Source: Perna viridis
Lineage: Eukaryota
Length of the DNA stretch: 64,000 nt
Direction: 5' to 3'
Assembly (NCBI GenBank): GCA_037379345.1
Contig: CM074520.1
Location: forward strand, 13,309,488-13,373,487
The notes beneath the pieces were generated by a model. It did not search any database, was not told where the DNA came from, and worked only from the letters and a program-made list of their open reading frames with translations. Both the position numbers and the translations under genes were made by a program. How positions within the stretch are numbered: position 1 is the stretch's first letter; every line of letters begins with the position of its first letter. This document shows, piece by piece, positions 1 to 63,723 of this stretch.

Positions 1-932
1 TGCAAACAATTTTCCTTGGAAGGCATATCTGAAAGTAATATTGTGTTCAGGATCAGACGAACAAAACTCTCAATTGCAAAGTCACTTGTTCATAAAAGAT
101 GATGAACCGATGGATTCTCTATCTTTAAATTCAGGATTTGTCAACAGATATGAATATACGAAACTATCTAGAACATTTGAATTAGAAGGGAGTCTGATGG
201 AAGACGTTTTAAATCTGGACAAATATTTAATCAATGCAGTAGATATCTACATGAAGTTATTTAGATCTAGTATTCCTTTTCTGTTGATGTCTGGAGAAAG
301 CACTCCCAATTATAAAGTGAAGTTATTAGATGTGGCCTTTAAGACAGCAAGAGTTAAACTCGATCCAGGAGTTATTTTAAACCATAGTCAACAGATCAAA
401 GAAACACCTGCCACATACGTGATAAATAGAAGTAATGTTTCACAGAACATTATACCAAATGGTGCAAGTGACTTTTATTGGGACTCCATGTTTCCAAAGG
501 CTTTACCTTCGAAAGTAGTGTTTGGACTAATTTCACAGAAAGCAGCAAACGGAGATTACACTGCCAATCCCTTTAATTTTCAACACTTCAATTTATCCGA
601 AGTGAGTTTGAAAGTGAACGGAGTTGACATATATGGATCCCCTTTAAAATTAGATTTTGGAAACAACAGAAATTACGCGGAAGCATATGTTAGACTATTT
701 GAAATTTGCTGTCAGGAATGACTTTAGAAAAGGGTTTACTTTATTGGCATTTTCGTTAAATCCTTCCGATTTTGGAGAGGAATTTTTAGACCTAGTCAGA
801 AACGGGTATGCCAGATTGGAAATGACATTCAGTCAAGCGACAACAGACGTAATAAATTGTCTGTGTTTTTATCAGTCACAAGCCATTTTGACGTGTAACG
901 AAGCAAGAGACATCAAATTAATAGAGCCATGA
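1..932 (+). pseudogene. Polinton major capsid protein (double jelly-roll/hexon-like), 5' end outside window, frameshifted near 705-720
   Basis: ORFs 41-721 and 657-932 together give motifs LPSKVVFGL..AANGDYTANPFNFQHFNL..LKVNG and DFRKGFTLLAFSLNP..GYARLEMTF, typical of Polinton MCP. The stop overlaps the protease start (ATGA at 929-932). Confidence 0.85.
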
Positions 933-1396
933 ATACAGATGAATTGAGAAGGGTCATTTCATCACTCCATTGTCTAAATAAATGTCACGTGGAAATATGC
1001 GCATTAAATACATTACCCAAGACCACCACGAATCGGTATCCGCAGGTTTATATTATCAACACAGATCCCATACCTTTACCTGGAGAACATTGGATTTGCG
1101 TTCTAATGTTAGATACAATGTCATCAGAATATTTCGACAGTCTCGGTAAACCAGCGGAATTCTACGGTGATAGTATTCAAAACTTTATTTCAGAAAATAG
1201 TAAAAGATGCTTTTACATTTTACAGTCGTTACAGGATCCAAACTCAGATGTGTGTGGCCAGTATGTGCTATTTTTCATTTTGATGAGGGTGTGCCTTTCA
1301 GTTTCTATGAAGAAAATGTATGAAATGTTTGGAGATAATCTCAAAGACAACGACTATTTTATGACGTCATATTTAAGTGATCTGTTGAAGGCATAA
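929..1396 (+). CDS. Adenain-like (adenovirus-type) cysteine maturation protease
   Basis: YIINTDP..PGEHW (His), YFDSLG (Asp), LQ...SDVCGQY (Gln/Cys); intact 155-aa ORF. Confidence 0.92.
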   Translation: MNTDELRRVISSLHCLNKCHVEICALNTLPKTTTNRYPQVYIINTDPIPLPGEHWICVLMLDTMSSEYFDSLGKPAEFYGDSIQNFISENSKRCFYILQSLQDPNSDVCGQYVLFFILMRVCLSVSMKKMYEMFGDNLKDNDYFMTSYLSDLLKA

Positions 1397-1445
1397 AAAA
1401 GGGAAAGTAACTAGTGAAAAAAAACTTTTGATTCTAAGGACGCAT

Positions 1446-2083
1446 ATGAGAATGGAAGACACCACTGACAAAATTCTGCTGCCATTTAACTCTCCGACGA
1501 CCATTGCAGTTATTGGTCCAACACAATCGGGCAAATCGAGGTTGACAAAGAGACTCGTAGAAAATGCATCCAAAATGTTCACAGAAACACTGGAAAATAT
1601 TTTGTATGCATATTCTGAATATCAACCACTATTTGACGACATGAAACATATTCACAATCTAACATTTCACGAAGGTCTTCCCGATAAGCAGAAAATTGAA
1701 GACTTTACATCTAATGATAAACATACATTGATAATATTGGACGATTTGATATCTGAAATAGTACAGTCACAGTCACAAGTCATCATAGAAGGGCTTCTGT
1801 GGTACTAATTTCACAGTCATTGTATCCACCAGGGAGATACGTTAAAAGTAATTTTGTTTTGTTTCGTAACCCTAGAGATGCTAGACAAATAGTAACGTTT
1901 GCGTCTCAAATCCTTCCGGGACAAAGTAGATACTTTACAGATAGCTACAATAAAGCTACACGAGATAAATACGGATATATACTAGTAGACATATCTCCAC
2001 ACAGAGGGCAAGAAGAACGACAGTTTATGTTAAGAACTGGAATATTTCCTGGCGATACCTGTACAGTATATAAACCATTATAA
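1446..2083 (+). pseudogene. A32/FtsK-like genome-packaging ATPase, frameshifted near 1770-1780
   Basis: Walker A GPTQSGKS and Walker B LIILDDL. After the frameshift the other frame reads SHHRRASVVLISQSLY..LFRNPRD..YGYILVD..LRTGIFP. Confidence 0.9.
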
Positions 2084-2122
2084 AAGAAGAGGTCAACGAG
2101 AAAATAAATCATTTGCTGTGGG

Positions 2123-2434
2123 ATGAGTAGACGGATGAGGTCACATTCCTCATTCTTAAAACTGTTGTATCAAACGACCGAAAACCAACGGAAGGCAATT
2201 ATAGCGACTCTGTCGACAGAACAGTTGGAAGTACTTTCAGAAATAGCTTTAAACATATATAAAGGTGTATTTCCGAATAAGCAATCGTACATAAAAGCTT
2301 TGAAACCCTTTAAGAGAAGTGTGCTTCGACTAGGAGACAAAACCATAAACAATTCGGAGAAAAAAAGACTATTGCTGAAAAGAAGGCATTTTTTACCCAA
2401 GTTATTGAAACCCGTTATAGAAATACTGAAATGA
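2123..2434 (+). CDS. Small basic Polinton ORF, unknown function (possibly a virion core protein)
   Basis: LKLL..QRKAII..EQLEVLSEIALNIYKG..KKRLLLK resembles a small ORF that recurs in Polintons. TATAAAAG lies at 2079-2086, about 40 bp upstream. Confidence 0.65.
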   Translation: MSRRMRSHSSFLKLLYQTTENQRKAIIATLSTEQLEVLSEIALNIYKGVFPNKQSYIKALKPFKRSVLRLGDKTINNSEKKRLLLKRRHFLPKLLKPVIEILK

Positions 2435-2437
2435 ACC

Positions 2438-2740
2438 ATGTCTAAAGAATTTGTATTACTACCTAAACAACAGTACAAAGATATGGTGTCCACTACATCC
2501 GCGGAGTCCGTTGAGACAGAGGACAAGGGAATACAAACAGAAAATTTGAACGTTTTTTGTCAAGAAGGAAAAGGTCTTGTTGTTCAGGCAGAACATGAGG
2601 GAGAAATACCTGGTATACTCGACAAACCTCCAGTCAAGAAGAGAAAAAATAGGAACAGTATTCGTTGGATAATGTTTTTATTTAACACATTTGACAATGA
2701 GATTATCCCGTGTGATTTTGTTAATAATACATCAGGTTGA
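2438..2740 (+). CDS. Small hypothetical Polinton ORF (3' end uncertain)
   Basis: Starts 3 bp after the previous stop; MSKEFVLLPKQQY N-terminus and a basic PPVKKRK patch. Confidence 0.45.
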   Translation: MSKEFVLLPKQQYKDMVSTTSAESVETEDKGIQTENLNVFCQEGKGLVVQAEHEGEIPGILDKPPVKKRKNRNSIRWIMFLFNTFDNEIIPCDFVNNTSG

Positions 2741-4085
2741 ACAGAAAAAAAAATAAGTATTTATAGTTATCTATCTTTGATCTGACAAAAATAAGACATT
2801 TCTTATTAAATTATTTTAATATCGGTAAGGTACAGTAGGAAAATCGTTTAATAAACGTCTCTTTGTGTACACCATTTTAAATTCTTTGTCTATGATCCTG
2901 TTATAGAGTTTTCTCTTTGTAGCGATCCGCGATATTTTTCGAGGATTAGTTGTCTTTATCGTCTCAATGTTATCTTTGTTTAAGATGATTTCTTTGATAC
3001 TCGATAGATTGATCAATTGTACGTTGGTCCAATTCAAAGTGAAGCCTCGGACCTTGCATACCTCTTTGCCGGCAGCCGTTCTATATGCATAAGATTTAGG
3101 ACCAGAGGAGACGAACGTTTTAATATGTCCATCTTGGGGAGAAATTTCACTAGTGAGTTCACCAAGGTAATTACCTACAGGAAGACGTTGTACTAGTTTA
3201 TTGTTAACATCGTGAAATATGATGGAATCCGTATCCACATAAAGTGCATTTTTCTGTGTGACATCGAGCAACTCGTACAATTTCATTCTGGCGTAAGCCG
3301 TGGTAAAACTGGCAATAAAAATGTTGGTTTTGTAGTCAAAAGGTAAGAAGACTGGATCGTCGAAATATTCCAGCTGTATGATATCTTTACTAACGATATG
3401 GAAATCTTGAATGTCCTTTCTAGTGTCTGAAAGTAACTGGAAAAATTTGTCGACCTCATTTTCATATAGTAACGATGTCTGTTTCATATTCAAACGCTGT
3501 CCGAATTTTCCCCAAAAACAGTTTAAGCATATTTTCGCCAGACTGCGAAGTCCTGGATTTTCTCTAATGGAAGTGAAATCGAGTTTTATTTCTTCATTTT
3601 GTGCATAATTAATGATGTCATTTTGTTTTTCACTATCGGTGTTACAATTAAAAGGAAAACCTGAAGCCTCTTGTTTTATTTTCAAGAACACATTAACGAA
3701 TTCCGTAAAAAGTCCTCCTTTTCCCGTAGATCTGTCATAGTGACTCGTTTCATCAAAATGGTAAACTTCGTAAATTTTAACGAGTCTGTAACCTTTTCAA
3801 CGGGCTAACTGAATTTCTGGAGTACACCAGGTTCCCTTTAGTATTCTTTCCGTATCATTACAAGTACAGTCTTTTTCGTTTTCGGTGTCTGCACACGTTC
3901 GACACAGCGGAAATTTTAATTTTCCGTTCGATAAATACGGAAGAACGGGGTGATATAGTTGACGAGGTGCTAGAATGCTCACTTTTGCTATACCCATATA
4001 ATTAAAAATAGTCTTGAAATCAGACATGATGATGGTTGGATGTCCTATCGGATACTTGGAATACTTGTTCACGCTAGGATACAAA

Positions 4086-4280
4086 CTGCAAAAAAAAAAT
4101 CAAAAGACTAAGTCTTTTGGGGGAAAAAAGAGATATTACTCGTTAACCTATACTTTTAATCTTACAATGTTGAATTGAAATTTCCTCCTGCAAAGCTCTT
4201 TTTATTGTTATTAAACTTTTTTTTAATTTATCTACACCCATGAGACAAAATTTCATGTTATATATTTTTTTATATATTAC
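4086..4280 (-). other. Spliceosomal intron 2 of pPolB (195 bp, phase 2)
   Basis: Donor AG/GTAATA and acceptor ttttttttttgCAG/T; splicing restores YYDFTSLYPSVN. Confidence 0.92.
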
Positions 4281-4617
4281 CTAGTGAAGTCGTAATATTC
4301 GATGGTTTCTCCTGGTTCCGTGGTTTCGTGAAACAATTTGATGGCGTTGGTGCGTCCACCAAAGAAACTATCTCTGGGGTCTAATCTATCAACAATATCG
4401 AGAGAAGACACGTAATCTCTCATGGATGTGTCGACTTTCAGCTGATGGTAGAACTCGTGCTCCCAGATATTCTTGTAGTGGAAACCTAGGGCCAACAAGT
4501 CGGCTTCCTTTTTCTTGGTCATGTAGTAGAGTTCGTTCATCGAATGTTTTGTAACGGGGTGGGTCGTTGTCCTGCGATCTTGCGGGAAACACGTCAGACA
4601 TCCATGAAAGACACATC

Positions 4618-4680
4618 CTTTTAAAATAAATAATATTATATATATTTTATAAACTTATAAATATGTATTATATATTATTA

Positions 4681-4731
<51 letters not shown>

Positions 4732-4756
4732 TAAAAAAATTAAAAAAAAAACTCAC
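4618..4756 (-). other. Spliceosomal intron 1 of pPolB (139 bp, phase 1, contains a (TA)n microsatellite)
   Basis: Donor G/GTGAGT and acceptor tttattttaaAAG/GA; splicing restores AYEFLG-CVFHGCLTCFP. Confidence 0.88.
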
Positions 4757-7700
4757 CCAGGAACTCGTAGGCGGTCTTTGTGGCCTCGTCGTACCCGTCC
4801 AGCCTGTACCTCGATCCGGGGACCCGGTACTATCTGCCGTTCAGGGCGTGGCGTATTCGTAGGGACTGATCGGTCGAAGACCACATGATCCACTCCAGCC
4901 ACTGGATGGACGCTTTGCTGAAGTTATCCCTGGCGGTGTACCCTTCGGACGGAACGATGCCTATGGGGCTCTTGACGAAGATGCGTTTTCCTATCTTGTA
5001 CTTTTCGGTATCCGGAGATGACGATTGAATCCATTCGCCGTTGGACAACAAAACTCCCCATTTGTCTTCGACGAATCTGGTTGGACGACTGGTCCACTCT
5101 TTCGTGTCCAGATCGAGAACTTTAGTTTCGTAGGTTTCGTCGAGAAACACATGGCGGTAGATTCCCTGACACACTGAGGCAATGGTCACGTAATCGAAAG
5201 GGTCTACTCCCGGTGATCCGTCTTTAGCAGTGACTTCCATCATGAGCCGTCGAAATTTCATGCATCCTCGGCGCAGGATGTCTACGTCGGAAACACAGTA
5301 TGCATATATTTCCCTTTGGAAATCGAAAATCTCGTCTCGTTTGGTGTCGTGCCATGTTAAAAAAATGTCTCTGTCTTCCGATGACATGTAATCGCACCCG
5401 TAAAACGTCACATCGGGGTATTGACCGACGTACGTCTGGTTTTCCTTCCTATTGAACAGATGGGGAAAATATCCCTTGCAAAGTTCCTTCAACTCGAAAC
5501 ATTTTGGTATTTTCGACAGTGGCATACCTATAAAATTGATGGAATCCAAAAATGTGAGACCGATACCCTTTTCAATTTTCATGTACATGATTTTCGAGCC
5601 GTCGTAGAGAATTTTGTGAGGTTTGATGGAGTGGTGGTCGATCATCGTATTCAGGATAGGGTAATTGTCGAATGCCTTGGCGTTGTGTGCGATTAGAACG
5701 GTATTTCTATAATAAGGAGTCAATATGTGATCGCAGAAATCTATGATGGCCCTGTCACCTTTGAATACTCTCTGTCTGTACCCGCAACGATCTGTACAAG
5801 GAGGAAGGAACGAGTCTTTTCGTAACGTTCGACAGACACTGCATCGACTTCCACATGTATCACAATGCGAATTCATGTTTAATTCGTCGTTCAAACAATT
5901 GTCACACGTGGACTGGAGCACCGCAAAATTGACCTTGTGTTCTTCCAGACCACAGTGGGGTTCGTTACTGTTCGTACAAAGTCTACATTTGTTACATCTA
6001 TTTTCTGACGTACAGCCTTTACAAGGCACATCGGGTGCATAAACTTCCGTACAATGTTCTTTCAGACTACAATGGGATTCATTACAGTTTGTACATCTAG
6101 ACTCTGACGTACAGCCTTTACAAGGGACATCGGGTATGTAACTTTCCTCACAAGACATTAATTCGTTTTGTGTCGTCTCGAAATCGTAGAAAAAGAACTT
6201 TCTCGGTGCCTTTTTAACGTTTTCGGCCGTGAAGCGTCTACGTTGATAGCACAGATGTTGATCCGTGTACTATTCGAAGCAGCTTTTACATTTCCATTCG
6301 CCGCACACGTGATCCTCGGGCTTTCTTTTTTCTCTTTCCAGCACCTTTCTACATCGTTTGCATTGGTATACTTTTTCGCACAGTGACTTTTCGACTTCTT
6401 GTCCCTTCTTGTTTTGTCTCTCCATGTGTTTCTCATAACAGTCGAGTGAACGACAAGTTCGATTACAAAATTTACAACTCCTTTTGATGTCTTTCAGGCA
6501 AGGATTTCGACAACAAACGTTACAGGTCGTTTCGCAAGAATGGCGTCCTTTATTCTTGTAAGGTTTAAGACAGGTTTCGCAAAAGTATCCGTATGCGAAA
6601 AACCCATTGATGCTTCCGATGCGGTCGAAATGTCCACCCGATTCTCCTTCGGTCATATACAGATAAATGTTCTGGCGTGTGACATTGTTAGCTACGCGGC
6701 AAAACTTATTCCCCATTTTGGCAGACAAGACGAGGATGTTGATGTTTAATAAATTTTCAAAAGCAGTTATATCCGTTAAACCGAGGGCCCTGTCAATCGG
6801 AAGCGAGGCTTCTCGGCATAGAGTGATGGCCATGTTTTTGCTATAGCGTTTCGCGGACCTATCACCCACATGCTTGTAAAAACTTTTCGTCGTCGCTCGG
6901 TGTTTGATCGCTTTCATCGTGGAATTCATCGAAGGTCCGTCGTTTTGTGTTATCTTTTTCCATTCGTCTAACGGCACTTTTCTGCAAAGTTTCAAAAAAC
7001 ATCTGCCGATGGCCGTCGCCATGCAAAGGTGATCGTCGTTTGACACTTGTAATATTGATCGCTTGAGGGCAATCGAATTCTGTGGTCCAGACAGTCTTGT
7101 AATGTGATGTCTACCTGATCCAGTGGGTACTGATATATTCCCTATGGTGACTTGCATTTGGTCGTTTAGTGGAAGATTTTCTTCGCTATTCAATACCCAT
7201 TCTATGTTTTCCATGACTGTCTTCGAGTCTAAGTTTGACCATTTTTGTAACGGTACGACGATGGCATTATTTAATTCTGGATGGGATATAATGACCCGAC
7301 CTAAATCGGTGTCTTTTCCTCTTGCCTTTGCCAATACGGTGTCAAACATGTCGTGTAGCTGTGATATGAGTGTTCGCATTTTTCGTCCTTGCCATACGTT
7401 TGTGAATTTTACTTTGTACGTACTTTCGACCGCTAAATTTTTCGCAAAGGTCTTTTCTCCGGCTTTTCTAAAGATAAAGGGCGTCTCTTTCTCGGTCGCC
7501 GCTTCCCCCTCCCATATTGAGAGGGAAAATCTAGAGGAATCGGCGGCGTCTGAACATGCGTGTTCAATTGTTCTACATCGCTTATTTCTGCTGACTCGCT
7601 CGTTGTGGGAAGTAATTTTTCCACATTGTCTGATCCATTCGTATAGAGCCGATCTTCCACCATATGGGGCATTGAATAAATGTCGTCCATATTTTCTGAC

Positions 7701-8218
7701 GTTGGATTAGAATAATCAAAATTTATCTGAGACAGTAAGGGGTCATTTTTGCATGTTTTCGGACCAAAAATCACAATTTATTTGGTGTGAGTTACTGTCA
7801 GCGTCGATGAGTTCATCTAGCCAAGTATGCATTTGTTGGTGTTGGTGTAATTCGTCCTGTAGGTCAAATCTGACATTACACCATTTACAAGTCAGAAGTT
7901 TGTTTATCCTGTCAACAACGGCTTCGTGGCATAAAACATCGTTTTCTATTGCCCATAAAGTTAACGATAGGACATCGATCTTGTGTTGATTGTTTGTTGA
8001 AAACATTTTAACGAGTCCTTGAGCGATGAGAAAAAATTACTTTTAAACATTATTTAACTTTTTAGCTGTTGAAAAATACAATTTAAAAATTGTGACTATT
8101 TTTAACTATAAAAAAAAGTTTTGGTAATGCAAAGTCCAATAACTCTGATACATGACATGTGCCCTGCAAACCAATGACAAAAAAATAAAACAAAAACTGT
8201 AATATATCATTTCTGTTG

Positions 8219-8372
8219 CAGTCTTCGCGTTATAAATTTTGGTCTACAAGCCCGATCGGTCATTTTCATAAGATTTTGTATCGACAACATTGGCTTGTTG
8301 TAGCAATTTCTACAGGCCCCAAGGATTTTCACTAGCCAGGGGCGTCGGGCTGGTGGCCAATTTCGAAGACTG
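8219..8372. mobile_element. 154-bp MITE nested in the Polinton
   Basis: Perfect 9-bp TIR CAGTCTTCG/CGAAGACTG; 6-bp TSD CTGTTG at 8213-8218 and 8373-8378. Confidence 0.8.
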
Positions 8373-8446
8373 CTGTTGCCCTTTTATTTCGTGTATATAG
8401 TTGTCTCTAAAATTTCCTATTTTTTTGTTGTTATAACTAGTTTCAG

Positions 8447-10557
8447 ATTTAAAAAAACAACGACGACACCACCCAGAACAACTGATACCAGTTCTACATT
8501 GTCAGTCACAGATGTTCCAACATCACCACCCAGAACAACTGATACTGGTTCTACATTGTCAGTCACAGATGTTCCAACAACACTGCCCAGAACAACTGAT
8601 ACCAGTTCTACATTGTCAGCCACAGATGTTCCAACAACACTACCCAGAACAACTGATACCAGTTCTACATTGTCAGTCACAGATGTTCCAACAACACCAC
8701 CCAGAACAACTGATACCACTACTACAGTGTCAGGGACGGGTGATTTTCTAGGTGATAAAACATTAACATCAAAAATTTTTAATTTGTTATCAACTGATTT
8801 TGGTTTCAAAATTTGACTCATACTGTCAAAAAGTTTTAAAAATATGCTGTCGTATGTTATTGTTATCTACTGTGATGACACGAATCAGTTGATAAAATAA
8901 AAAAAAAAATTAAATTTTTTTAAGTACTTATTATTGTTTAAAATGTTATCAGTTTTGGTGAAAGTTACAATTAAAATTTAATGTATAACACAAGTCGATA
9001 TAAAACGGATAGTTGTTACATGTGTCATGCTAACAATAAATCTTGAAATAAAACACAGACTGTCACAATACCATTTCTATCCTGTACACACACATCATCA
9101 AAGTCATTTTAAAATCTTGCCTTCAGTTGTCAGAGATTTACAGGTCTTGCATTTTTATCTCATGTATATGACAATGGTTAAATGTATCTCTAATTTTTTA
9201 TTATACATGTAACTAATTTCAGAAACAACAACACCACCAAGAACTACTGATACCAGTACTACAGTGTCTACAGTTGATGATCTAGGTACTAAATCATTAA
9301 CAACATATAGTTATAATGTGTTATCAACTGATTCTGGTTTTCAAAATTTGACCCATACATTTTCATCACCAATCACTACTATGACCACTGCTAAAGTGAA
9401 TGAAAGTGCACCATTTGATGAACTGAATACTAGTCATATTAAATTGATTAACATTTTAATACCTGTTTTCAGCGTTGTTTTGGTTATTATTTTGTTGTCA
9501 GTGATTTTTCTTAAACTCTTACCAAATACTAGAAAAAAAATTATGAGGGAAGTTTATCCATGAATAACTTAGTTACGCACAGTGATTCTGATAAGAATGG
9601 CAGTGATGATGATGATGAGATATAGAATGTTAATACCGGTTTTCATGATTGTTATGTTCATTATTTTGTTGTATATTATTTTAAAAAGATTAAAAATTAT
9701 TAAAAAAAAAAAAAAAACAAGTAAAGATTGTGATTGTATGCAAGTCATATAAACCTCCTCTTACCCACCTGTTTAATTTTTATGGCAGAAGATAGTCTTG
9801 ATGGTTGCATCTTGTTTGCCATCCCCAGAATACCCTAGATATTATTTTTTGTTAAAATCAGACATCATTTAATTTTGTTCGATTTGGTGGCCATTTTGAA
9901 TTTAAAATTATAGAAATTCAAAATTTTGATATCATAAGTTAGATTTAGAATATGCAGGAATTGGAAAAAATATTTACCAAGGGACCATTTCCCTCTTTTT
10001 TTAACCCCTGAAAAAATTAAAGGGATCTTTTCTTAAAACTCCATACCTCACCCTTTGGTGTCGGATGTTTCATAAAGAAAAACTATAAAAAGTTATTATA
10101 AATACACTGTAACTTGCCATAGTTATTAATTATATATAGTGATTCTGATAACAACAATGATGATGAAAACAATTTATAATGATATACATTATAGATAACA
10201 ATAATATTTTATCACAAATATTTTACAGCTTACATGATATGGGCAGTTATCTCGACAATTATACTTTTGTTCGGTATTCCTGTTTATATTTGGATCAGTT
10301 GTAAAAGAACTAGAAGAACTATTTACACCCGAATTCCAGTTTCACTACCACATCAGTCGTCACCATCACCTCAACATGAAGAATTACCATTCATGACACC
10401 ATCTCCTTCACCGCCACGTCTACCTCACTTTGTTTCACCTTCAACCCCTATTCCTTCACCAGAGCAGCATGAAACACCAGAACAACCGGTTTCCAGCCGA
10501 ACCCGCAGTAAAACTAAAACTAAACTACAGTTTAAAGAAGAAGAAACATCACTGTAA
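8447..10557 (+). CDS. Putative spliced mucin-like single-pass membrane protein carried inside the Polinton (exons ~8447-8751, 9223-9286, 10229-10553/10557; first exon uncertain)
   Basis: Thr/Ser/Pro 20-aa repeats (TTPPRTTDTSSTLSVTDVP), pyrimidine-rich CAG acceptors at 8446, 9222 and 10228, and phase-1-compatible donors at 8752 and 9287. TM helix IWAVISTIILLFGIPVYIWI is followed by KRTRR and a Pro/Ser-rich tail. A further GTAAGT donor sits at 10554 with an acceptor at 10643. Confidence 0.55.
8458..8735 (+). repeat. 60-bp coding tandem repeat, ~4.5 copies (mucin-like)
   Basis: CCCAGAACAACTGATACC...GTCACAGATGTTCCAACA recurs every 60 bp. Confidence 0.9.
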
Positions 10558-10789
10558 GTAAATACAAAAAAAACAATTGTCTAGGTTTTGATACATGATC
10601 AATAATTGTTGATTCAAATGTATGTTTCATTTTTATCTTACAGATATTGTTTTACATTCAGTTAATATAAACTTTACATTATATTGGTTTACATTCAGTT
10701 GATAAATTTGCATATTATGTTTTACAATTTATTTTTAATTCTGTTCAATGTTATTTAACTGTTTCACAAAAACTAGACAATATCTTTTT

Positions 10790-11530
10790 TTTTTTTGTAT
10801 TTACATGTATGTATTTTAATATTAAGATGTACATCGGTATTAAGTAGTTTCCTTCACTATACATTTTTTTTTGTTCTTAGTTCTTTGTTAAAACTTTAAA
10901 TCAGTAAAAATTACGGGTGTTTCTATTTTATTACATGGTTAATACATGTTATATCGTCAATATTTTTGTATTTACATGTGTATTTTATACTTAAAATGTA
11001 CATCAGTATTAGAAGTTTCCTTCATTATACATTTTTTTTTGTTCTTAGTTCTTTGGTATAAACTTTAATCAGTAGAAAATTACGGGTGTTTCTATTTTAT
11101 TACATGGTTGATACATGTTATATTGTCAATATTTTTGTATTTACATGTGTGTATTTTAATATTAAAATGTACATCAGTATTAGTAGTTTCCTTCAGTATA
11201 CATTTTTTTGGGGGGTTCTTAGTTCTTTGGTAAAAAAAACCTTATCAGTATAGAATTTAATTACATGTATTTCTATTTTCTCTACATGGTAGTTCTTTGG
11301 TATTTTGTCATAATTTTGTCAATATTTGTTTGCTTTTAAACTCATAGTTCTTTGGTAAAAATCTTTAATCAGTATAAATTACATGTATACATGTACTTGG
11401 TTGATAAATGTATGTTATTTTGTTAATATTGTTTGCTTTTAAACCCATAGATCTTTGGTAAAAGCTTTAATCGGTATAAAATTACATTTATACATGGTTA
11501 CTACATGTTATTTTGTCAATATTTTTACTT
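10790..11530. repeat. Diverged AT-rich tandem duplications (~170-bp units x3, then shorter units)
   Basis: ttttgtatttacatgt..atgtacatc.gtatta..gtttccttca.tatacatttt..gttcttagttctttg recurs at ~10793, 10963 and 11132. Confidence 0.7.
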
Positions 11531-11881
11531 AGTCATGTCTTTCTTGATTGTTATTGTTTCATTGATCTTTAAAGAATATTTTGGGGTTTTTTTCAAGTTA
11601 ATAATTATATTCTGTTAAGATTTGAGTTGTCAAGGGTAAACAACCATGTACTTACTTTTTATATGTATTGTATGTTTTAATAACATTTGTTGATTATCGT
11701 TTTTTTTGTTTGTATTTTTACCATAGTCGGATATTTTTATCAATATTTGTTCAATATTGTTTACTTTAGTTTATGTACAATATATGGTTTAGGACACCTA
11801 TAATGCAAGCATTAATAAATCCATTTAAACTTTTTTTTATTTATATTTGAGTCGTCAAGGGTAAACAACCATGTACTTAAT

Positions 11882-13311
11882 TTTTATGTCGCCTGCAACG
11901 TGTTGCTGGAGCGACATATAGGGATCGCTTTGGGACCATCCGTCGTCTTGCGTCCTACGTCCTGCGTCACAGCAAACAATCAAAGTTTTCTCAAGAAGTA
12001 TAAATCGCAGAGGCTTGAAACTTTACACAAGTCTTCATACCATAGTACTACACCATGTATACCGATTTTATGCTGCTACGTCATCTATTTCCTGTTTTAT
12101 GACTTAGTCATTTTTTCTCCCATAGGGTCAATCGTAAAATTTTCGTAACACTTTTCTCAGAAACCATGAATCCTAGGCTTCTGAAATTTTGTATGCAGCC
12201 TCCAGTAGTTGTCCCATACCGTGTAAGCCGTTTTCGGGTTTGTCGGACGTCTACTTCCTGTTTTACGACTTAGTCATTTTTTTCTCCCATAGGGTCAATG
12301 GTAAAATTTTCGTAACACTTTTCTCAGAAACCATGAATCCTAGGCTTCTGAAATTTTGTATGCAGCCTCCAGTAGTTGTCCCATACCGTGTAAGCCGTTT
12401 TTGGGTTTGTCGGACATCTACTTCCTGTTTTACGACTTAGTCATTTTTTCTCCCATAGGGTCAATGGTAAAATTTTCGTAACACTTTTCTCAGAAACCAT
12501 GAATCCTGAGCTTCTGAAATTTTTTATGCAGCCTCCAGTAGTTGTCCCATACCGTGTAAGCCGTTTTCGGGTTTGTCGGACGTCTACTTCCTGTTTTACG
12601 ACTTAGTCATTTTTTCTCCCATAGGGTCAATGGTAAAATTTTCGTAACACTTTTCTCAGAAACCATGAATCCTAGGCTTCTGAAATTTTGTATGCAGCCT
12701 CCAGTAGTTGTCCCATACCGTGTAAGCCGTTTTTGGGTTTGTCGGACATCTACTTCCTGTTTTACGACTTAGTCATTTTTTCTCCCATAGGGTCAATGGT
12801 AAAATTTTCGTAACACTTTTCTCAGAAACCATGAATCCTGAGCTTCTGAAATTTTTTATGCAGCCTCCAGTAGTTGTCCCATACCGTGTAAGCCGTTTTC
12901 GGGTTTGTCGGACGTCTACTTCCTGTTTTACGACTTAGTAATTTTTTCTCCCATAGGGTCAATGGTAAAATTTTCGTAACACTTTTCTCAGAAACCATGA
13001 ATCCGAGGCTTCTGAAATTTTTTTTGCAGCCTCCAGTAGTTGTCCCATACCGTGTAAGCCGTTTTCGGATTTATCGAACATCTACTTCCTGTTTTGCGAC
13101 TTAGCCATTTTTTCTCCCATAGGGTCAATGGTAAAATTTTTGTAACCCTTTTCTCAAAAACTACAAACCGCAGAGGCTTGAAACATTACACAGATCTTCA
13201 TACCATAGTACTATATCGTGTAAAGTGATTTTATGCTCCTACCTCATCTACTTCGTTTACCGATGACTTAAGCGCAGGCGACATATGCTATCCCTGGATT
13301 GCTCCATCTAG
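11882..13311 (+). mobile_element. Non-autonomous Helentron/Helitron-type element carrying a 166-bp satellite array, nested in the Polinton
   Basis: Subterminal inverted repeat ATGTCGCCTGC (11886) / GCAGGCGACAT (13274), 3' hairpin GCTATCCCTGGATTGC, end CTAG, insertion in a T-run without TSD. The empty site is preserved in the neighbouring duplicate at 11623-11830. Confidence 0.8.
11990..13270 (+). repeat. 166-bp satellite, ~7.5 monomers (same size class as the oyster Cg170/HindIII and BIV160 satellites)
   Basis: GACTTAG anchor at 12101, 12267, 12434, 12600, 12766, 12932 and 13098. Confidence 0.92.
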
Positions 13312-14289
13312 TTATATGTATTGTACGTTTTAATAACATTTGTTGATTATCCTTTTTTGTTTGTTTGTATTTTTACCATAGTTGGATATTTTTATCAATA
13401 TTTGTTCAATATTGTTTACTTTAGTGTATGTACAATATATGGTTTAGGACACCTATAATGCAAGCATTAATAAATCCATTTAAACTTTTTTTATGATTAC
13501 ATTCCTTTAAATGTCTTTTTGGTTAACTTCTTTCAATATCCAGTCTAATAAATTACCTCAATGCTGTATTATTATTTCTTTTTATAAATTTCGATGTTAC
13601 GTTAAAGATATTTTGTTATTTTTCCAAATTGTTATAAACATGTAAAGTTTTATAAAAAAATATATTTGTAGTTTAAACATTCCATATATAAAGTAATATA
13701 AATTCCAATGTCTTCCAATTACTAGTATATATTCAGGTTTTCTAAAACTGTTTATACTTGTTATTCTATTTCATATATTTCATATTTCATAGCAAATTTC
13801 ATACTTATCAATACTCTGTTATGTATTCTTTACATTTATAGTTGTGTATATAGGTTGTAAAAATGTTATATTTTCATCATCTTAAAATTGTTAAAGAATT
13901 CTTCATAATTAATATTTTTTATAATGATAATACTCAAGGGATGACTGCGCCATAATTTGTTTTTTTTTATCTTTTAGTTTATGATTTGTAATTTTAAGTA
14001 AAATTAAAGAAGAATTCAAGAAAAAAAGGAAAAAAAAAACAAAAAAACAGGGGTTATCTTTTTGCTGAGTTGATCAATTTGTACAACCGACAATAAGATT
14101 ATCTCATGTGATTTTGTTATTAAACATCATTCAAAGCAAAAAGATGTGTGTGCAGCCCTTGAACAGGTATGTATGCTTAGAAGATTAATGTTTTAAAACT
14201 TTTGCAGTTATCTCTCTTATAACATTATATTCTTGTTATTACACCTTGTGTCTCAACAATTCCTATTTATTGATCCCTCATTTCGGATA

Positions 14290-14455
14290 GACTCCCATAA
14301 TTGAGTTTTATAAACCCATAACTTATATTAAACTTCCCCTCTTTCTTCACTATTTCATACAACTTATCGGAACCAGAAAATGCCGCTGGATGATTCGGGT
14401 CTGTCCATATCTCTTTTAGATATTTCTCCTTTCTCCTTAACGTTGCACTTACCAT
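14290..14455 (-). pseudogene. N-terminal stub of the Polinton retroviral-type integrase; catalytic core missing
   Basis: EKYLKEIWTDPNHPAAFSGSDKLYEIVKKEG matches the L..iyydP.hP.sfsG..kLY start of Polinton integrases. It points inward from the terminal repeat; no DDE core follows. Confidence 0.75.
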
Positions 14456-14524
14456 ATTTCATAGCATTACTGTCGTTTTGAAGATAAAATGCATTCATAA
14501 TAACAATTGGTGTAGAGGTTTATT

Positions 14525-14771
14525 TTATGGACCCCTTCGTGACGTCAGATATTACATCAGGTTTTAATGTTTATGGACCCCTATGTGAGGTCATAGACCC
14601 CTCAGTCTCTGAGGGACCTCAGGTCATAGACACCCCTCTAATTACGAGGGACCTCAGGTCATAGACCCCTCATCTGAGGGACCTCATGTCATAGACCCCC
14701 TCAACTGAGGGACCTCAGGTCATATACCCCCCAGGGTACAAGGGGTCCTCCTTACCCCCTATTGTAGTTCT
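14525..14771. repeat. Right terminal (TIR) region of the Polinton with short internal tandem repeats
   Basis: GAGGGACCTCAGGTCATAGACCCC repeated about 5 times at ~30-35 bp spacing; ends CCCCCTATTGTAGTTCT. The matching left TIR is not in the window. Confidence 0.7.
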
Positions 14772-15055
14772 ACCTGACCGTAAGCTATTTGAGCTATTGC
14801 AATCACTTGGCATACCAACTTTAATTGAATTTTCTACAGTAGTTTATGAGGAGAAGATTTTAAAAAATAACGACAAACGACATCAAGACCAGCAAAAAAA
14901 AAATCTCCAAAAAGGGCAATAACTCCAACATGGGTTAAGAGATTTTCACTAAAATATGACCACAGATACATTTGTAGATTTTATCAGTCCAAATTTGGTT
15001 TAACTAAATTTTAGTACAAAAGTATCATTTTCAATGGTTTAAATAGCTCAGGTAA
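14772..15055 (+). mobile_element. Remnant of a Helentron-like repeat into which the Polinton appears to have inserted
   Basis: Begins ACCTGAcc...TGAGCTATTGCAATCACTTGGC, like the agctcACCTG..tgagctattg head of bivalve Helentron-like repeats, and ends GCTCAGGT. Confidence 0.4.
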
Positions 15056-17745: not shown

Positions 17746-20700
17746 ATGTCGAGCTTCTTTTCATGCTTAGGAAAGAAAAGTAAGGCGAAAAAGAAAAAGA
17801 ATGGAAAACCACCAGAATCTAAAATAGTAAGTACTACTGTGTTTTCTCTAGAGTGCTATTATAATTAATTAAGTAGCATCGCAATCTAATTATATATAAT
17901 TATTGATAAATATACTTATGATATGCATCAACACCTACACAACTATAAATATTTCATTTTAACACATCGTGTAATAGAACATTTGAATTATAAATGTATG
18001 TTATGATGTATGGTACTATTTCCCTTGGAGATACACTCCAGGCAATAGAAAGCAAGTATAAAACGAACAGCTAATTACATCTGTACATTCGCTTTACCGC
18101 AAGGCAATTACTGTCATCAAAAGTTGCGTAGACCTAGCCTGATTCAATAATTAGTTTCTATAATAAGCTTATAAGTAGGCAGCTTAAGGTGCTAAGATAC
18201 GAGTAAGATATGTGTGATACACATGACCGTTGCTTCCATTCACTATTTCTAAAGTCTTCCACGTGGTTTCACCGGTAAGGTGTTTTATCTGCCGTGACCT
18301 CATCGTCTTATGCAGTTTGTTAACTTTAAAGTCTTCTATTCAAATGAAACTGATTAATCCCTAGTCAGGTGTAAATCCGGTGTTCAAGGTCCTTTTAAGT
18401 GTACTATGAAGTTTTCGCCGGACTGGTAATGGATTTTTCGATCCTAATGTTCACTGTCCGTCAGTCTGAGCGATTCTTAATGACAAAAACATTAACAGCA
18501 AATTTATCCTCATGTGTTTAATATATTTGCACTGTATTTTCATAGTTCTTAATTCATTTCTTCATCGATTTGAGGAACTGAAATAATAAGGGTCTTGGGA
18601 ATGACAAGTTTATTTTTGTTGTCTTCTTGTCGTAAATACTATTCAATATGTTCATGGTCAGTAAGGTTCATTGTATAAGATTGATTTTCTGAGGGAAGTG
18701 TTTTTTATTGTACCATAAATGGAGAATCCAGAAATTCCGAAATGAATAGGTTGGACGGGGGGTGACAGAGATTTGGATTCAATCAACCGCACTTTTCTAG
18801 CATAAGAGGGGCAGCCCCCCCTTTGGATCCTTCTACTGTCCATGTACTTTGACTTTGAAAAGTTGGGAAAAATAATATGTTTGTTTTCATCTACCTTACC
18901 TACCCTAGTTTTGTGTCGACCGTAAACGTTTTATGACCATTTTGGCTCAAGCACTAATAAAGTCTAGATCGTTTCTCGATTACAATTCATTGTATAATAT
19001 TTTTGAAAATTAATAAAATAATTTCCCTACATACAAACCCTATTTGTTCTTGCTAGTAGCAGGAAACAAAACTATTATTATTTTTTCGGCATTATATACG
19101 TATATTGTTTTCGCGTTCTATCAGTAATAGTCATAACAGAACTGAGTCGGTCTGTTTCCTCTCGAGATTTATAAACATCACGTATTTTTTTTTCAGATTG
19201 AGGACCAAACCAAATACGATGGGGACAAGGAGCATCCCATAGAGGAATACATCCCTGCAGACAAGGTTTGTTATTGTATATAGGTCTACATAAATGTAGT
19301 TATTATAGCATTTTGTAGTGCTAACTGAAAAGTGCCACAAGCAGTCTGCTATTGAATGAATGCCTTCAAAATGGTAAAAACATTCATTTGCATTGTTTAA
19401 ATCTCACGTATTTGTACAGAAAACATTAATGGTTGTTCCTCGAGTTATTTATTGGAATAGTTTACCCCCAATCAATGTGTGTTGAATCTATAAAAATAAC
19501 TTTGTCCAGGACTTAACCTACAAAGTCGATGTTGATTGATTCATACTTTGGGAGCGGTTCATCGTCTCGATTCTATTTCATAAAAACTATTTAATGATAC
19601 ATGTATGAATACAAAATGATTATGCATGAAGTGCATCCGACCAATTTTGGTCCTCTAGGTAACCGCGTTTTCTTCGTTGGCATCCTGAACGAACTGTAAC
19701 ACTCACAATAAGCACTTGATGACATTTTTAATACAATTTCTATAACTTCAGAGTACATGCTTTTAACAAAATATTCGTCAATCTACCTTTTACAGGGCTG
19801 TGAATACTCACTACATACCAGTGTTTTCGAAATATAAAATAATTTATGTTTTTTCTGCAATGTTTATACAAATGTATGTCACGCCCAGTTATAAAAGGGT
19901 TGTAATTTTATATACAATTATGCTTATCTGTAATACTTATATGACTTCAATTATTTAAATGCTTCTGTAAGGGTCCTTTTCCGGGATTCTATGCATTTCT
20001 TCTTACTGTTTTTTTTTCTGTCAACACAATTTTTGTACCTGGATTTATAAGCTTAAACCCCAAGAACTTCCACCAGGAGGAATGACAAATCATTGAATGT
20101 ATTACCACTGATAATTGGTTTCCAGATGTTATTGAGCCATTAAAAAGTTAAGTACCTTGTCGCTTACACTGCACATATGTAAGCATCATATTTCATTTCA
20201 TTGATAAAAAGACAAAATTGTGTTGTTTTGGACAATTCATATCACAGTTAACACATTTCAAGTGTGTCTACGGACATCGCTAAGCACAGGGAGAGACTTC
20301 TTATTTCTTGTTTATATTAAACACCTTGTCTATCACTATTCAAACGAAATTGTCGATGTACGATTGATGCCTCTAGTTATAGATCTGGTATGTTTTCCAG
20401 ATACTAAACAGGCGCGGACACATGGCAGCGGACCCGGTGTACGCCCGATCTAAAACTGGGAGGGGTAGCATAAAACATTATTATATGTTGACTGTATTAT
20501 TCCATAATTGCAGGAGGAAACTCAGTCAGTTACTGAACAGGCATGTGAGGTAAAAGGACCAGTGCAGTGTTCCGATGAACCAGTCGACGTACCAGTCGAA
20601 GAGGCACCGTTAATAAAAGAACTCAAGTCGAAATTGAGTATTAAAGTTGAAAAATCTCCTACTCAGGAACAATCTGAACAGATCAGCAAACCTAATAATG

Positions 20701-23700
20701 ATGAAGATAAACAAGAAAACACGATAGAAGACATTGTTCCTGAAATTATTGAGAAGTCAGTCATTAAATCTGTTGGCGCTGAGATTGGTAAAATTGAGGC
20801 GAAGGCAAAAGAGGAAACTAAGAAACTTCTTAAAGCTGACAGTCTGTCTGAAAAGAACTTCCTACTGTCTGAAGAGAACCAAAGATTGAGGAAAAAATGC
20901 GACGAAAATGAAAATCAGATACGTAATCAGAGAAATGAGATACAAAAATTACAGGAGGAGTGCTTGGCAATTAAAAGGGGGTTAAATGATGGAACAAAGC
21001 TTCAGAAGGCTATACAAGATCGTGTAGATATAATGGTGGCTGTCGATCAGCTCACCAATGCCTGTTCATCTCTCAAGATGAGATTAGATGAAGTAGAAAA
21101 TGAAAAAGATAAAAAATCGAACGCATCGCAAAATATAGAAAGCAAGATAAGTGTCATCAATAATGATCACGAAGAATTGAGCAAAAACATAAAGAATACC
21201 CTCAAATGTGTGCAAGAATTAGAATGTCGTGTTATTAATCTTGAACTTGATAAGGAAAATGGAACAGAGAAGCAAGACGATGTTTTGTGTAGTTTAAAAG
21301 AAAAGGATAGCCCTTTGAAAATACAGCAAGATCATCAACAGGTTGTTAATGCGTTCGAAAACCAAGTATCAATGCTGTTAGAAGAGGCAGCTACTTTAAA
21401 GAAAGAAAATAAGGAACTGAAAAATCAGAACTCGAATGAACAAATAAAGCAACAGTTGAATCAGTTGACATCCTTAGAAAAACAGGTGGAGCAACTGACT
21501 GGTGATTTATCTAAGTTACTGAGTGAGAACAATCAATTAAAAGACCAACTTAAAGACAACAAAACACAAGCTGAACTCATTAGTAAATGTAAAACTCTTG
21601 AGAGCACAATAGACAATCAGAAAGTAGAAATTACAAAGATGACTGGTGAAATTGGACAGTTACAGAAGCAGGTGTGTGCACAAGAATCAAAGGCTGAAAC
21701 AGTAGAAAAACAGGCTGTTAAAATAGGGTCTTTGCAAGAAACTGTTGAAAGCCAAAACAAAGAGCTAGCTTTAGTAATGGAGGAAAATAAACGTCTCTTA
21801 AAACAATTGACCCCTGTCAAAGACGATGGAAAGTTGAAATCAATGCAGCAGCAAATGGAGAAACTTAATTCAGAGACCACTAAATTAAAGGAAGAAAACA
21901 CGATGTTACAAAACCAAATAAAACTTGAAAAGGTGCAGACTGAAACGGTACAGGAATTGCAGAAACAAGCACAAACCTTGGAATCTGAGAAATCTACGTT
22001 GCAGAAACAAAGTAAAGATTTGAGCACACAGTTGGAAGAAAGTTTACAATCTCATCGCTCTAAAGACGAAAGGTTGTCATCACTTCAGACAATCGAAAAT
22101 GGCCTTAACAATACAATATCGTGTCTGGAATCTAAACTATCACAGTACGAAGCTCGACATAAAAGTGAAACTGAAGAAATGACCGTCGTGAAGAAAAAGC
22201 TAGAAAAGACTGAAGGTCAACTTAGGGAAAAGGAAATAGCTCACCAGGACACTATTAAAAAACTAGCAGAGGCGCAGAAGAAACAAGAAGAGATTCAGAA
22301 AAGGTTGTACTATTGTCTTAGTTCAGCTACATATTAGAAGCTGATTTAAAGAGTTAATAGCTCAAACTGCTCAGTTTTGTCTAATTCCTAAACATTTTTA
22401 TTATCCTTCCGTTTTGGGTTCCACCCACAAAACGGAAGCATAATATTGATGTAAAGGAATTAGACAAAACAGAACAGTTTGATTATTAACTTTTGACTTT
22501 TAAACAAACATTTTGTGTATAAATCTCTATGAAATTTTGCTGTAGGGTTTCATAACACAAACTTTGAATGATGTTTAATTATGTTTAAAGAATCAAGGAC
22601 GGAGAATTTTATTTTTTAAGTTTGGCAAGTTAAGTGATACAACAGTGCAACTATACTAACAGTGGAATAATGCTCTTCTTCTGTCCTGTCCATACAAAGT
22701 AATTGCGTTTAATAGTTTTATCTATCTTTGATACAGAATATACACAATCTAATTACAGATGTCCAGCTCCAAACCAGGAATCTATATTTAACAACATTAG
22801 CAAATACTATACTACCTTTTTAAGTTGAACAATTGATTCAATTTTGTAGACAAAATGGAATTACTGCGGAGAAGTCGCATGCCGTTAACGGTACCGCCAT
22901 GATGGCATCGTTATCGACGTCAGAAGACAGCTCAATAAAAATAGGCGAAAAGTTTCGAGAATTATTCGACACAGTTTGGCGTGAGGCTTTTGATAAACTG
23001 CACAATGTCTGCAAAAGGGATGAAAGAAAAGTTTTATTGATCCTGATGGAGTATTTGACGGTAGAATTACTTTAATTCTTTTAGCTAGTAACCCCAACCA
23101 CACAAGAAAAATTATCCGTTCTGAAGAACCATGGAAAATGGAACGCTTAAACACTTTATCCTGTATATATTGATTGAAAAGTTCTACAAAATTAATATGA
23201 ATGTATTTGGTATTTCAAAATGGCTAAAATATTACTTCAAAACGTATTTAATTTCCATACAGAGAGTAGGAAGAAGTCCTGATTAAGGGCACACACATCT
23301 AAGAGTAATCAAGGGAACCAATGTTATAGCAGTAATCAAAAGAATGTAATCCAGGGACAAAGACAAGACATGGAAAACAGACACACACAACAAAGAACAC
23401 AAAGTAACTAAAATCATACATACAAAGTAACAAAAGTAAATGAGCAACTCGGACTCCACTAAAAACTGGGAGCATGGACTAGGTGCACCGGTAGGGTAAA
23501 AATGTAACTGCCTAAATAAAGATAACTTAATCCTGTTCAGTAGAAAGTCTGTGTTAGATACCAAATGTTTTCTTCCTTTTAAATTGTTTCATTGATATTA
23601 CCAATAGGGTTATCTTAATTTGAAATTCCGCGATCGCATTAAGGTTGGTTTGACTTGAACAAGAATAAAATAAGGAAAACTAGATTTTATGTTTGAAGAG

Positions 23701-40167: not shown

Positions 40168-63723
<23,556 letters not shown>

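Follow-up and report, generated by a model that had tools for sequence, protein, structure and literature searches.

The window, by which we mean the whole 64,000-nucleotide stretch of Perna viridis DNA analysed here, begins within a Polinton/Maverick element and contains its right part. The element has the termini ACT...AGT, a 6-bp target duplication (TCTACC, at 14769-14774) and terminal inverted repeats of ~460 bp at both ends, each including the first codons of the integrase. Between its polymerase gene and its right terminal repeat lie the exons of a spliced gene for a predicted membrane glycoprotein. The features, in window coordinates, are:

1..14768, no strand assigned: right part of the Polinton/Maverick, which totals 17.4 kb and has its left end 2675 bases before the window
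2-932, plus strand: capsid-like ORF, which gave no Pfam match
899-1396, plus strand: adenain-like protease (Peptidase_C5, E 4e-4, 20.6 vs 21.3 bits)
1389-2083, plus strand: ATPase, with weak AAA matches
2816..8036, minus strand: protein-primed family B polymerase gene (pPolB), in several broken pieces, N-terminus missing
7996..8000, no strand assigned: deletion junction, with ~2.9 kb lost in the window copy and a 4-nt TGAA microhomology
8050..8452, plus strand: segment missing from the sister copy on contig C13, probably the 3' part of the family's intron 1, with an acceptor at 8446
8447..8751, plus strand: Thr/Ser/Pro repeat exon with a 57-nt unit, encoding a mucin-like stalk
8752..9222, plus strand: GT-AG intron of 471 nt, with its joint in runs X6 and X9
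9223..9285, plus strand: Thr-rich exon of 63 nt, phase 1-1, with joints in contigs
9286..10228, plus strand: GT-AG intron of 943 nt, with its joint in runs X1, X5 and X9
10229..10557, plus strand: transmembrane (TM) exon with TM helix, KRTRR, YTRI (a YxxPhi motif), nine S/T-P sites, an RTRS-basic C-terminus and a stop at 10555-10557
14305..14768, minus strand: right terminal inverted repeat, containing the first codons of the integrase

The polymerase was recognised by PF03175 in three broken pieces, at E values of 2.7e-18, 2.5e-8 and 1.4e-5. The assignments of protease, ATPase and capsid rest on a gene order conserved in other elements, and two small ORFs also lie on the plus strand of the Polinton within the window. 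The integrase gene itself sits at the opposite end of the element, left of the window, and its ORF is 63% identical to one that matches Chromo at E 1.6e-8 and, under the cut-off, rve_3 at E 9e-4. What an earlier, sequence-only reading of this DNA took for an integrase stub to the right of the membrane gene is really the set of 5' integrase codons copied inside the right terminal inverted repeat. The composition of the region is AT-rich, like that of the host.

That reading had also proposed Thr/Ser/Pro repeat exons and a TM exon with KRTRR and a Pro/Ser tail, and repeat structure, composition and hydropathy bear this out. The 57-nt repeat, present in 4.7 copies at 8466-8733, encodes a 98-aa stretch with 52% Thr+Ser, and the 63-nt exon duplicates the repeat exon's end plus its flank (83% identical). 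In the TM exon, a 19-residue hydropathy peak of 2.3 is followed by KRTRR and then by the Pro/Ser tail. The codons split at the two joints, G+AA and G+CT, make these phase-compatible, as had been claimed; since 9286 is the first intron base, the second exon ends at 9285 rather than at 9286. The repeat exon begins out of register with its relatives, which are read in phase 1; neither of the window's two stalk exons offers a Met upstream of the TM exon, and a GTAAGT donor at 10554 overlaps the stop codon at 10555-10557. Reading through the intron at 9286-10228 gives an open frame at about 9213-9563 that ends in a second TM-like helix; when this read-through TM frame (about 9225-9560) was compared with a similarly placed TM exon of another family, no homology was seen.

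A DNA search of the assembly (723 Mb, 46 contigs) returned only two copies of the region, with the introns present in both. The second copy belongs to a sister Polinton on contig C13, which, at 96% identity and a length of 19.4 kb, has flanks of its own and the target duplication GACAAC. Because flanks and 6-bp duplications differ, the two are separate insertions, and the same differences rule out a segmental duplication as the source of the C13 copy. The position previously read as the pPolB start is the deletion junction at 7996-8000, and the N-terminus of pPolB is missing from the window. Lost here and kept at C13 are this N-terminus, a CARD+PC4 gene, a coiled-coil gene whose small exon is on the minus strand and, on the plus strand, a signal-peptide/Cys exon. 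This C13 first exon has a hydrophobic, signal-peptide-like start and eight Cys, and ends in a phase-1 GTAGGT donor. The remark that no signal-peptide exon is visible thus holds for the window, where a Cys-domain profile gave no match, but the exon exists in the family and was deleted from this copy. At C13 the Cys exon is itself broken near its 5' end, and the copy is without a counterpart of window 8050-8452 (a segment that includes a dispersed-repeat fragment near 8220-8373), hence without the next acceptor. The membrane gene is therefore defective in both genomic copies, in different ways, and the window copy, having lost its first exon, is a truncated remnant of a gene family. When the two copies were aligned, gap columns numbered 0 in 688 exon nt, as against 42 in the first of the two introns (8752-9222) and 9 in the second (9286-10228), while substitutions showed no rate difference (12 in 688 exon nt vs 18 in 1414 intron nt).

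Evidence for splicing came from assembled contigs of 7 of 24 listed sequencing runs (5 studies), which we compared with the window and the C13 copy; the runs were presumed to be RNA by a program's guess, with none on record as RNA, and their contigs are called RNA-like here. The joint 8751>9223 was found in 2 of the 7 runs (X6 and X9), with X1 using an in-frame donor 12 nt upstream (after 8739), and the joint 9285>10229 in 3 of the 7 (X1, X5 and X9), with a 15-nt matching loose end in X6. All observed joints were GT..AG, and each of the two introns was skipped in two studies. A further intron proposed at 10554-10643 fared less well. Its donor is probably used: the contigs from X4 and X9 stop at 10553, and a 3547-nt contig from X5, which includes the 63-nt exon and the TM exon, continues from there for ~3150 nt of unlike sequence. 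Its acceptor at 10643 finds no such use, in that among the contigs listed there was no joint to 10644, and an X1 contig spans 10227-10741 unspliced; as X1 reads through 10554-10643, the stop at 10555-10557 stays. Relatives of the gene end at the same C-terminal motif as the unspliced TM exon of the window. The contigs likewise speak against the weak candidate first exon at 8152-8198, since those from X2 (8133-8374) and X4 (8128-8336) cross its donor unspliced; the segment is moreover missing at C13, and the exon would join in phase 2 vs the phase 1 of the family. Among the contigs listed, none joined the Cys exon to the stalk exon.

The letters of these contigs differ in part from those of the window. 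At positions 10339 and 10413, 4 of the 4 runs of one comparison carry the C13 letters, and in the repeat exon the contigs mix letters of the window and C13 copies, so that the transcripts come from other alleles or insertions and are not assignable to the window locus. Given these sister-copy letters and the lack of an upstream Met, the window copy probably yields no full protein. Contig cover was absent from the pPolB stretches (7700-8122, and the first 1336 bases of a second comparison) and from most intron bins, which we do not count as evidence.

To place the gene in the genome, we turned to its relatives. Genome-wide single-protein searches gave 12 loci with the TM tail, a lower bound, and for 10 of them the distance to a Polinton core gene is 0.5-21 kb. 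Nine of the first 11 TM-tail loci fall within ~25 kb of pPolB, for which an unbiased search gave 19 loci; the 25-kb surroundings of those 19 make up no more than 0.13% of the genome. As 8 of the 12 loci are on contig C15, they are not independent. Around the two orphans (C7 and C15:16.32M), ~40-48 kb of DNA showed no Polinton core gene, and both loci are broken fragments, one with a stop at a conserved Trp and the other a tail piece beside a LINE. All seven Cys-exon loci, three of them found by inspecting pPolB surroundings, lie <=12 kb from a core gene, and two (C15:7.73M and 9.85M) are open from ATG to donor across signal peptide and Cys domain. No homologue was found in the DNA examined around several Polintons (C6, which has a nearly intact pPolB, C8, C4 and C15:14.2M), and the gene is therefore accessory. 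Nor did eight single-protein genome searches with family exons or members, whose counts are lower bounds, reveal an intact host paralogue outside Polintons.

Across these loci the architecture recurs. All seven TM exons examined have a phase-1 acceptor, a TM peak of 1.9-2.5 and a YxxPhi motif; in the alignment of the seven, the helix begins directly after the acceptor and YxxPhi lies ~10 residues beyond the basic patch. A TPSP-like stretch and the C-terminal RTRS-basic motif recur among them. Thr-rich exons are phase 1-1 in 4 of 4 relatives examined; of the five Cys exons examined that extend as far as the last Cys, four end in a GT donor of phase 1; and at the C9 locus Cys, Thr-rich and TM exons stand in series. 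Phase and motifs are kept in diverged families at ~30-40% identity, and between families the Cys domains share only 20-50% identity on a fixed Cys skeleton. The gene is thus found, with frame, phase and motifs kept, in the C13 sister and in diverged Polinton families, rather than being absent from other copies, matching an unrelated host locus or losing its frame. Selection gave a more divided picture: dN/dS was 0.22-0.49 between diverged TM exons, a rough value as dS exceeds 1.2 and is near saturation, and 0.15 for one close Cys pair, but other close pairs showed little or no constraint (0.68 for a TM pair; 0 synonymous and 5 non-synonymous changes in one Thr-rich pair), and the TM exons of the window and C13 differ by 2 changes only. 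Most copies in the genome are visibly broken.

Whole members of the family were found as protein models in Mytilus. The Cys-exon profile alone retrieved 11 proteins at E<=0.001 among 1.84 billion; the first ten were seven unnamed Logan/ENA products, mostly read-through first exons, and three Mytilus models. The M. edulis model XP_071143936.1 (304 aa) has a signal peptide, the Cys module, a Thr stalk, a TM helix, YLPI and a ..RRTRS end; its tail is a weak match to the TM profile (22% probability). The stalk is missing from M. coruscus CAC5421908.1, which otherwise shares this architecture and has a tail matching that profile at 95% probability. These two members are known here as protein models; whole, at 226 and 304 aa, they show the Cys and TM parts within a single protein, a link that does not depend on our own exon reading. 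A cluster mate from M. trossulus, XP_063436625.1, has signal peptide, Cys module and stalk fused to a pPolB N-terminal region 60% identical to that of the window, and the Cys exon therefore adjoins the Polinton polymerase in M. trossulus too.

The module itself spans ~65 residues, with eight nearly invariant Cys that include two CxC pairs ~22 residues apart. An AlphaFold model built from 19 sequences is a small all-beta fold with pLDDT 72 (about 80 in the module); an earlier model from 5 sequences had reached pLDDT 46, and Foldseek with it was uninformative. Neither Pfam (19 family members) nor PDB sequences gave a match. With the module model, Foldseek against a viral library gave no match at E<=0.001, and a comparison with 48,161 PDB representatives gave nothing convincing (best VIA Z 3.6), the weak beta-solenoid rows at Z 2-3.6 not being trusted. 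Word-index searches of proteins gave nothing for the TM exon, the TM alignment or the C12 Cys ORF, IMG/VR held no relative of the Cys alignment, and the Atlas returned nothing for the Cys exon and only leads below 0.9 for the M. edulis protein.

Taken together, these data make it very probable that the gene family and its architecture are real. We further consider it likely, with less assurance, that the exons in the window are the spliced back half of a conserved Polinton accessory gene for a predicted type I glycoprotein that modulates the host cell surface. The type I topology is predicted from sequence, namely a hydrophobic N-terminus, one TM helix and YxxPhi in seven of seven TM exons. 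In the mechanism that we propose, the signal peptide would take the protein into the secretory pathway, and the all-beta module of eight Cys would be displayed on an O-glycosylated Thr-rich stalk, with the single helix as membrane anchor. The YxxPhi motif, ~10 residues into the tail, could let the protein cycle through endosomes by AP-1/AP-2. During activity of the element, the Cys module might attach to a surface or immune receptor of the host and either block it or carry it into the cell, target and benefit being parts of this model. Such an E3-like role in receptor binding and down-modulation, which rests on analogy, we put forward tentatively, at somewhat under even chances; the likeness to E3 suggested earlier extends to the architecture but not to the domains, as no CR1/Ig-like or other domain match was found, and we claim no membership for the family among the adenovirus E3 CR1/herpesvirus RL11 glycoproteins.

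We rank receptor down-modulation first among the possible functions and exclusion next, with a virion role, neutral cargo and local exon capture less likely. In an exclusion role, the protein on element-bearing cells would mask or remove the receptor of related polintoviruses or of a larger virus, protecting element and host. The same architecture fits, as do Cys domains that diverge between families around a constant Cys skeleton and RNA-like contigs in the runs of five studies, as for a gene active when integrated; but these elements have no known receptor, virion or helper virus, and we regard this role as unlikely. A part in the virion, as attachment glycoprotein or entry factor of a membrane-wrapped particle, would have a precedent in the nematode Mavericks that encode a fusogen with signal peptide and TM helix (10.1101/2022.07.12.499685), and in the Atlas the M. 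edulis member has its nearest feature neighbour in UL132, an envelope glycoprotein of a herpesvirus, with a score of 0.81 that shuffled proteins attain in one case out of three. Against it stand the small size of the Mytilus models and their 65-residue ectodomain module, set beside the 866-aa MFUS-1, and the gene is both missing from several capsid-bearing elements and placed apart from the capsid module; we hold a virion role to be very unlikely.

The choice left by the sequence-only reading, between an accessory surface glycoprotein and a captured host gene, falls in favour of the former. A mucin-like receptor gene captured with its introns and carried as cargo need not serve the element, and would account for spliceosomal introns, host-like composition and a position beside the terminal repeat, as well as for the two orphan loci and a sub-threshold likeness to TMEM154 and podoplanin; intron-bearing Maverick cargo has been published (10.1101/2022.07.12.499685). 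Its host source, though, did not come to light: both orphans are broken, and the named profile matches are all Mytilus models of unknown function. The divergence alongside Polinton families, with phase and motifs kept, also tells against capture, as does the fact that, in the available part of the nematode study, ~20% of cargo genes are Maverick-linked (10.1101/2022.07.12.499685) vs 10 of 12 loci here. An ancient host origin of the gene is possible, and neutral captured cargo improbable. Because the sister and diverged families keep frame, phase and motifs and no intact host paralogue was found, we favour a Polinton accessory glycoprotein. Finally, stalk and TM exons might be spliced onward into host sequence, as leader or fusion partner of a neighbouring host gene. 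The X5 contig that runs on beyond the 10554 donor and the X4 and X9 contigs that end there are in keeping with this, and downstream at C13 lies a B-box/TRIM-like ORF whose acceptor matches in phase. A phase match is nevertheless a 1-in-3 chance, and the partner stretch in X5 was not seen; since such capture leaves the conservation of the family unexplained, it is a local add-on at most, and as an explanation the least probable of all.

The main finding is thus a gene family, of which the window copy is a remnant. That a gene for a spliced surface glycoprotein is kept across diverged Polintons and in several mussel species is not easily reconciled with a purely intracellular transposon, and bears on whether animal Polintons act as real viruses that meet host defences; according to the portion available of 10.1101/2023.08.22.554363, no virion of an animal Polinton had been observed. 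A broader and rather doubtful proposition is that the Polintons of mussels have their own immunomodulatory unit akin to E3. It would be a spliced and rapidly evolving family of receptor-binding glycoproteins, having alternative membrane anchors, a disulfide-rich beta module of a new kind and a conserved RTRS-basic end that signals inside the cell, and it would still be transcribed from integrated copies in natural populations. If true, this would give a first handle on how animal Polintons cope with host immunity. The natural 304-aa M. edulis model is a concrete protein for a partner search, and the intron-containing structure implies that Polinton annotation based on ORFs alone overlooks accessory genes of this kind.

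Several of the kinds involved are already published, namely Maverick accessory regions, intron-bearing cargo and a fusogen with signal peptide and TM helix (PMC8097293, PMC8502044, 10.1101/2022.07.12.499685). Literature searches returned no description of this glycoprotein family, with most subscription papers, and supplements such as the gene maps of PMC8502044, outside their scope. As a lineage-specific accessory gene, the mussel gene resembles the PLA2X, GasderminX and cupiennin-like genes of adintoviruses (PMC8502044) and vertebrate Maverick accessory regions (PMC8097293), which the available parts of these sources, unlike the present case, do not describe as secretory-pathway type I glycoproteins. 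The nematode Maverick cargo genes WASP and KRMA (10.1101/2022.07.12.499685) are likewise intron-containing non-core genes beside a terminal repeat. They are presented there as enzymes and lie mostly outside Mavericks, whereas the mussel family is small, non-enzymatic-looking and, in this genome, nearly confined to Polintons. MFUS-1, from the same study, shows that a Maverick can encode a protein with signal peptide and TM helix, and differs in being a class III fusogen, a class marked by a large (~800-aa) gB-like ectodomain that exceeds the whole Mytilus models. The mucin-like single-pass host proteins TMEM154, podoplanin and PRIMA1, together with HCMV gpUL132, all Pfam or Atlas neighbours below threshold, share the composition of stalk, TM helix and Pro-rich tail; the 8-Cys module sets the mussel family apart from them, and their scores lie below curated cut-offs or at chance level.

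Among the closest analogues are the adenovirus E3 glycoproteins, especially E3/49K (CR1-beta), a glycosylated type I protein that inhibits CD45 (PMC13437282). As far as that source was available, E3/49K has three CR1 domains and a tail of 19 residues, in contrast to the single 8-Cys module and the ~80-residue Pro/Ser tail with an RTRS-basic end in the mussel family. The latter further differs in its Thr-rich repeat stalk, in domains split by phase-1 introns and in belonging to an integrating element, and shows no sequence or fold link to CR1/Ig-like domains. In both cases, an accessory gene of related non-enveloped DNA viruses encodes a glycosylated type I membrane protein, predicted as such in the mussel family, whose compact ectodomain module is joined to a disordered spacer and which carries a YxxPhi sorting signal.

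Beyond its main exons, the Polinton membrane gene, which comprises Cys, Thr-rich stalk and TM exons, carries additional hydrophobic segments, and its TM exon has a recurring tail motif:
window 9213-9563, + strand: read-through of exon 2, with a second, more hydrophobic TM-like helix (hydropathy peak 3.2)
window 9627-9745, + strand: duplicate of the read-through TM-like helix, 75% identical
window 10490-10554: example of the conserved C-terminal motif of TM-exon tails, [IV]A.RTRS..[KR].L.F

An extra TM exon, or the remnant of one, also follows the stalk exon in two other Polinton families, and when these exons were compared with the read-through helix of the window no similarity was detectable. 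The additional TM-like helices after the stalk exon are possibly alternative membrane anchors. At the far end of the gene, the motif is the best-conserved portion of the TM-exon tails and is preceded by several S/T-P sites; we take it to resemble basic nuclear or chromatin-binding motifs and cyclin-docking (RxL) motifs.

Two further coding features were located in the sister Polinton insertion on contig C13 (stretch L017):
L017 7586-8503, + strand: CARD+PC4 fusion gene, deleted in the window copy
L017 8635-8850, - strand: small coiled-coil exon, in head-to-head orientation to the membrane gene

The fusion gene encodes both a CARD domain (PF00619, E 3.5e-6) and PC4/p15 ssDNA-binding domains (PF02229, E 1.2e-15), lies near pPolB or divergent from it, and recurs in six other stretches of the genome (L030, L032, L034, L038, L082 and L084). 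With its death-fold domain, its product may act as a second immune modulator of Polintons. The small coiled-coil exon is kept in three Polinton families, with homologues in L041/L057 and L053, and is entered by a minus-strand splice joint from inside the Cys exon region in X5, an assembled-contig run guessed to be RNA.

The window copy itself contains an insertion, and several exons or exon-like features lie outside the two sister copies:
window 11841-13311: insertion of 1.5 kb that the C13 copy lacks; includes 6.5 copies of a 166-bp tandem repeat
window 20508-22337, + strand: host coiled-coil exon, open for 609 aa
window 25886-26365, + strand: exon encoding a MIEAP domain (PF16026, E 5e-15)
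window 59818-60174: duplicated exon-like stretch
L019 7288-8959, + strand: single-exon ORF that lies downstream of the C13 copy at a distance of 11.5 kb

A duplication of ~140-185 bp bounds the insertion. The coiled-coil and MIEAP-domain exons lie downstream of the membrane gene on the same strand. The L019 ORF has an acceptor immediately 5' of its ATG and is presumably B-box/TRIM-like, judging by its motifs. The translated exon-like stretch contains what we assume to be a zinc-knuckle-like motif. Elsewhere in the assembly, decayed Polintons of several families are densely clustered on a single contig (C15, 7.7-17.0 Mb), where one LINE-like element heavily interrupts them.

A different arrangement of the gene start was found in the Polinton on contig C9:
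L092 1863-4764 and L075 5166-7656: inverted repeats of ~2.9 kb, with the Cys exon inside

Since the repeats of this family contain the Cys exon, the membrane gene begins within the terminal repeat. The Cys exon of the left repeat is directed into pPolB. The M. trossulus model XP_063436625.1 shows the same arrangement: there, signal peptide, Cys region and stalk are fused to a pPolB N-terminal region.
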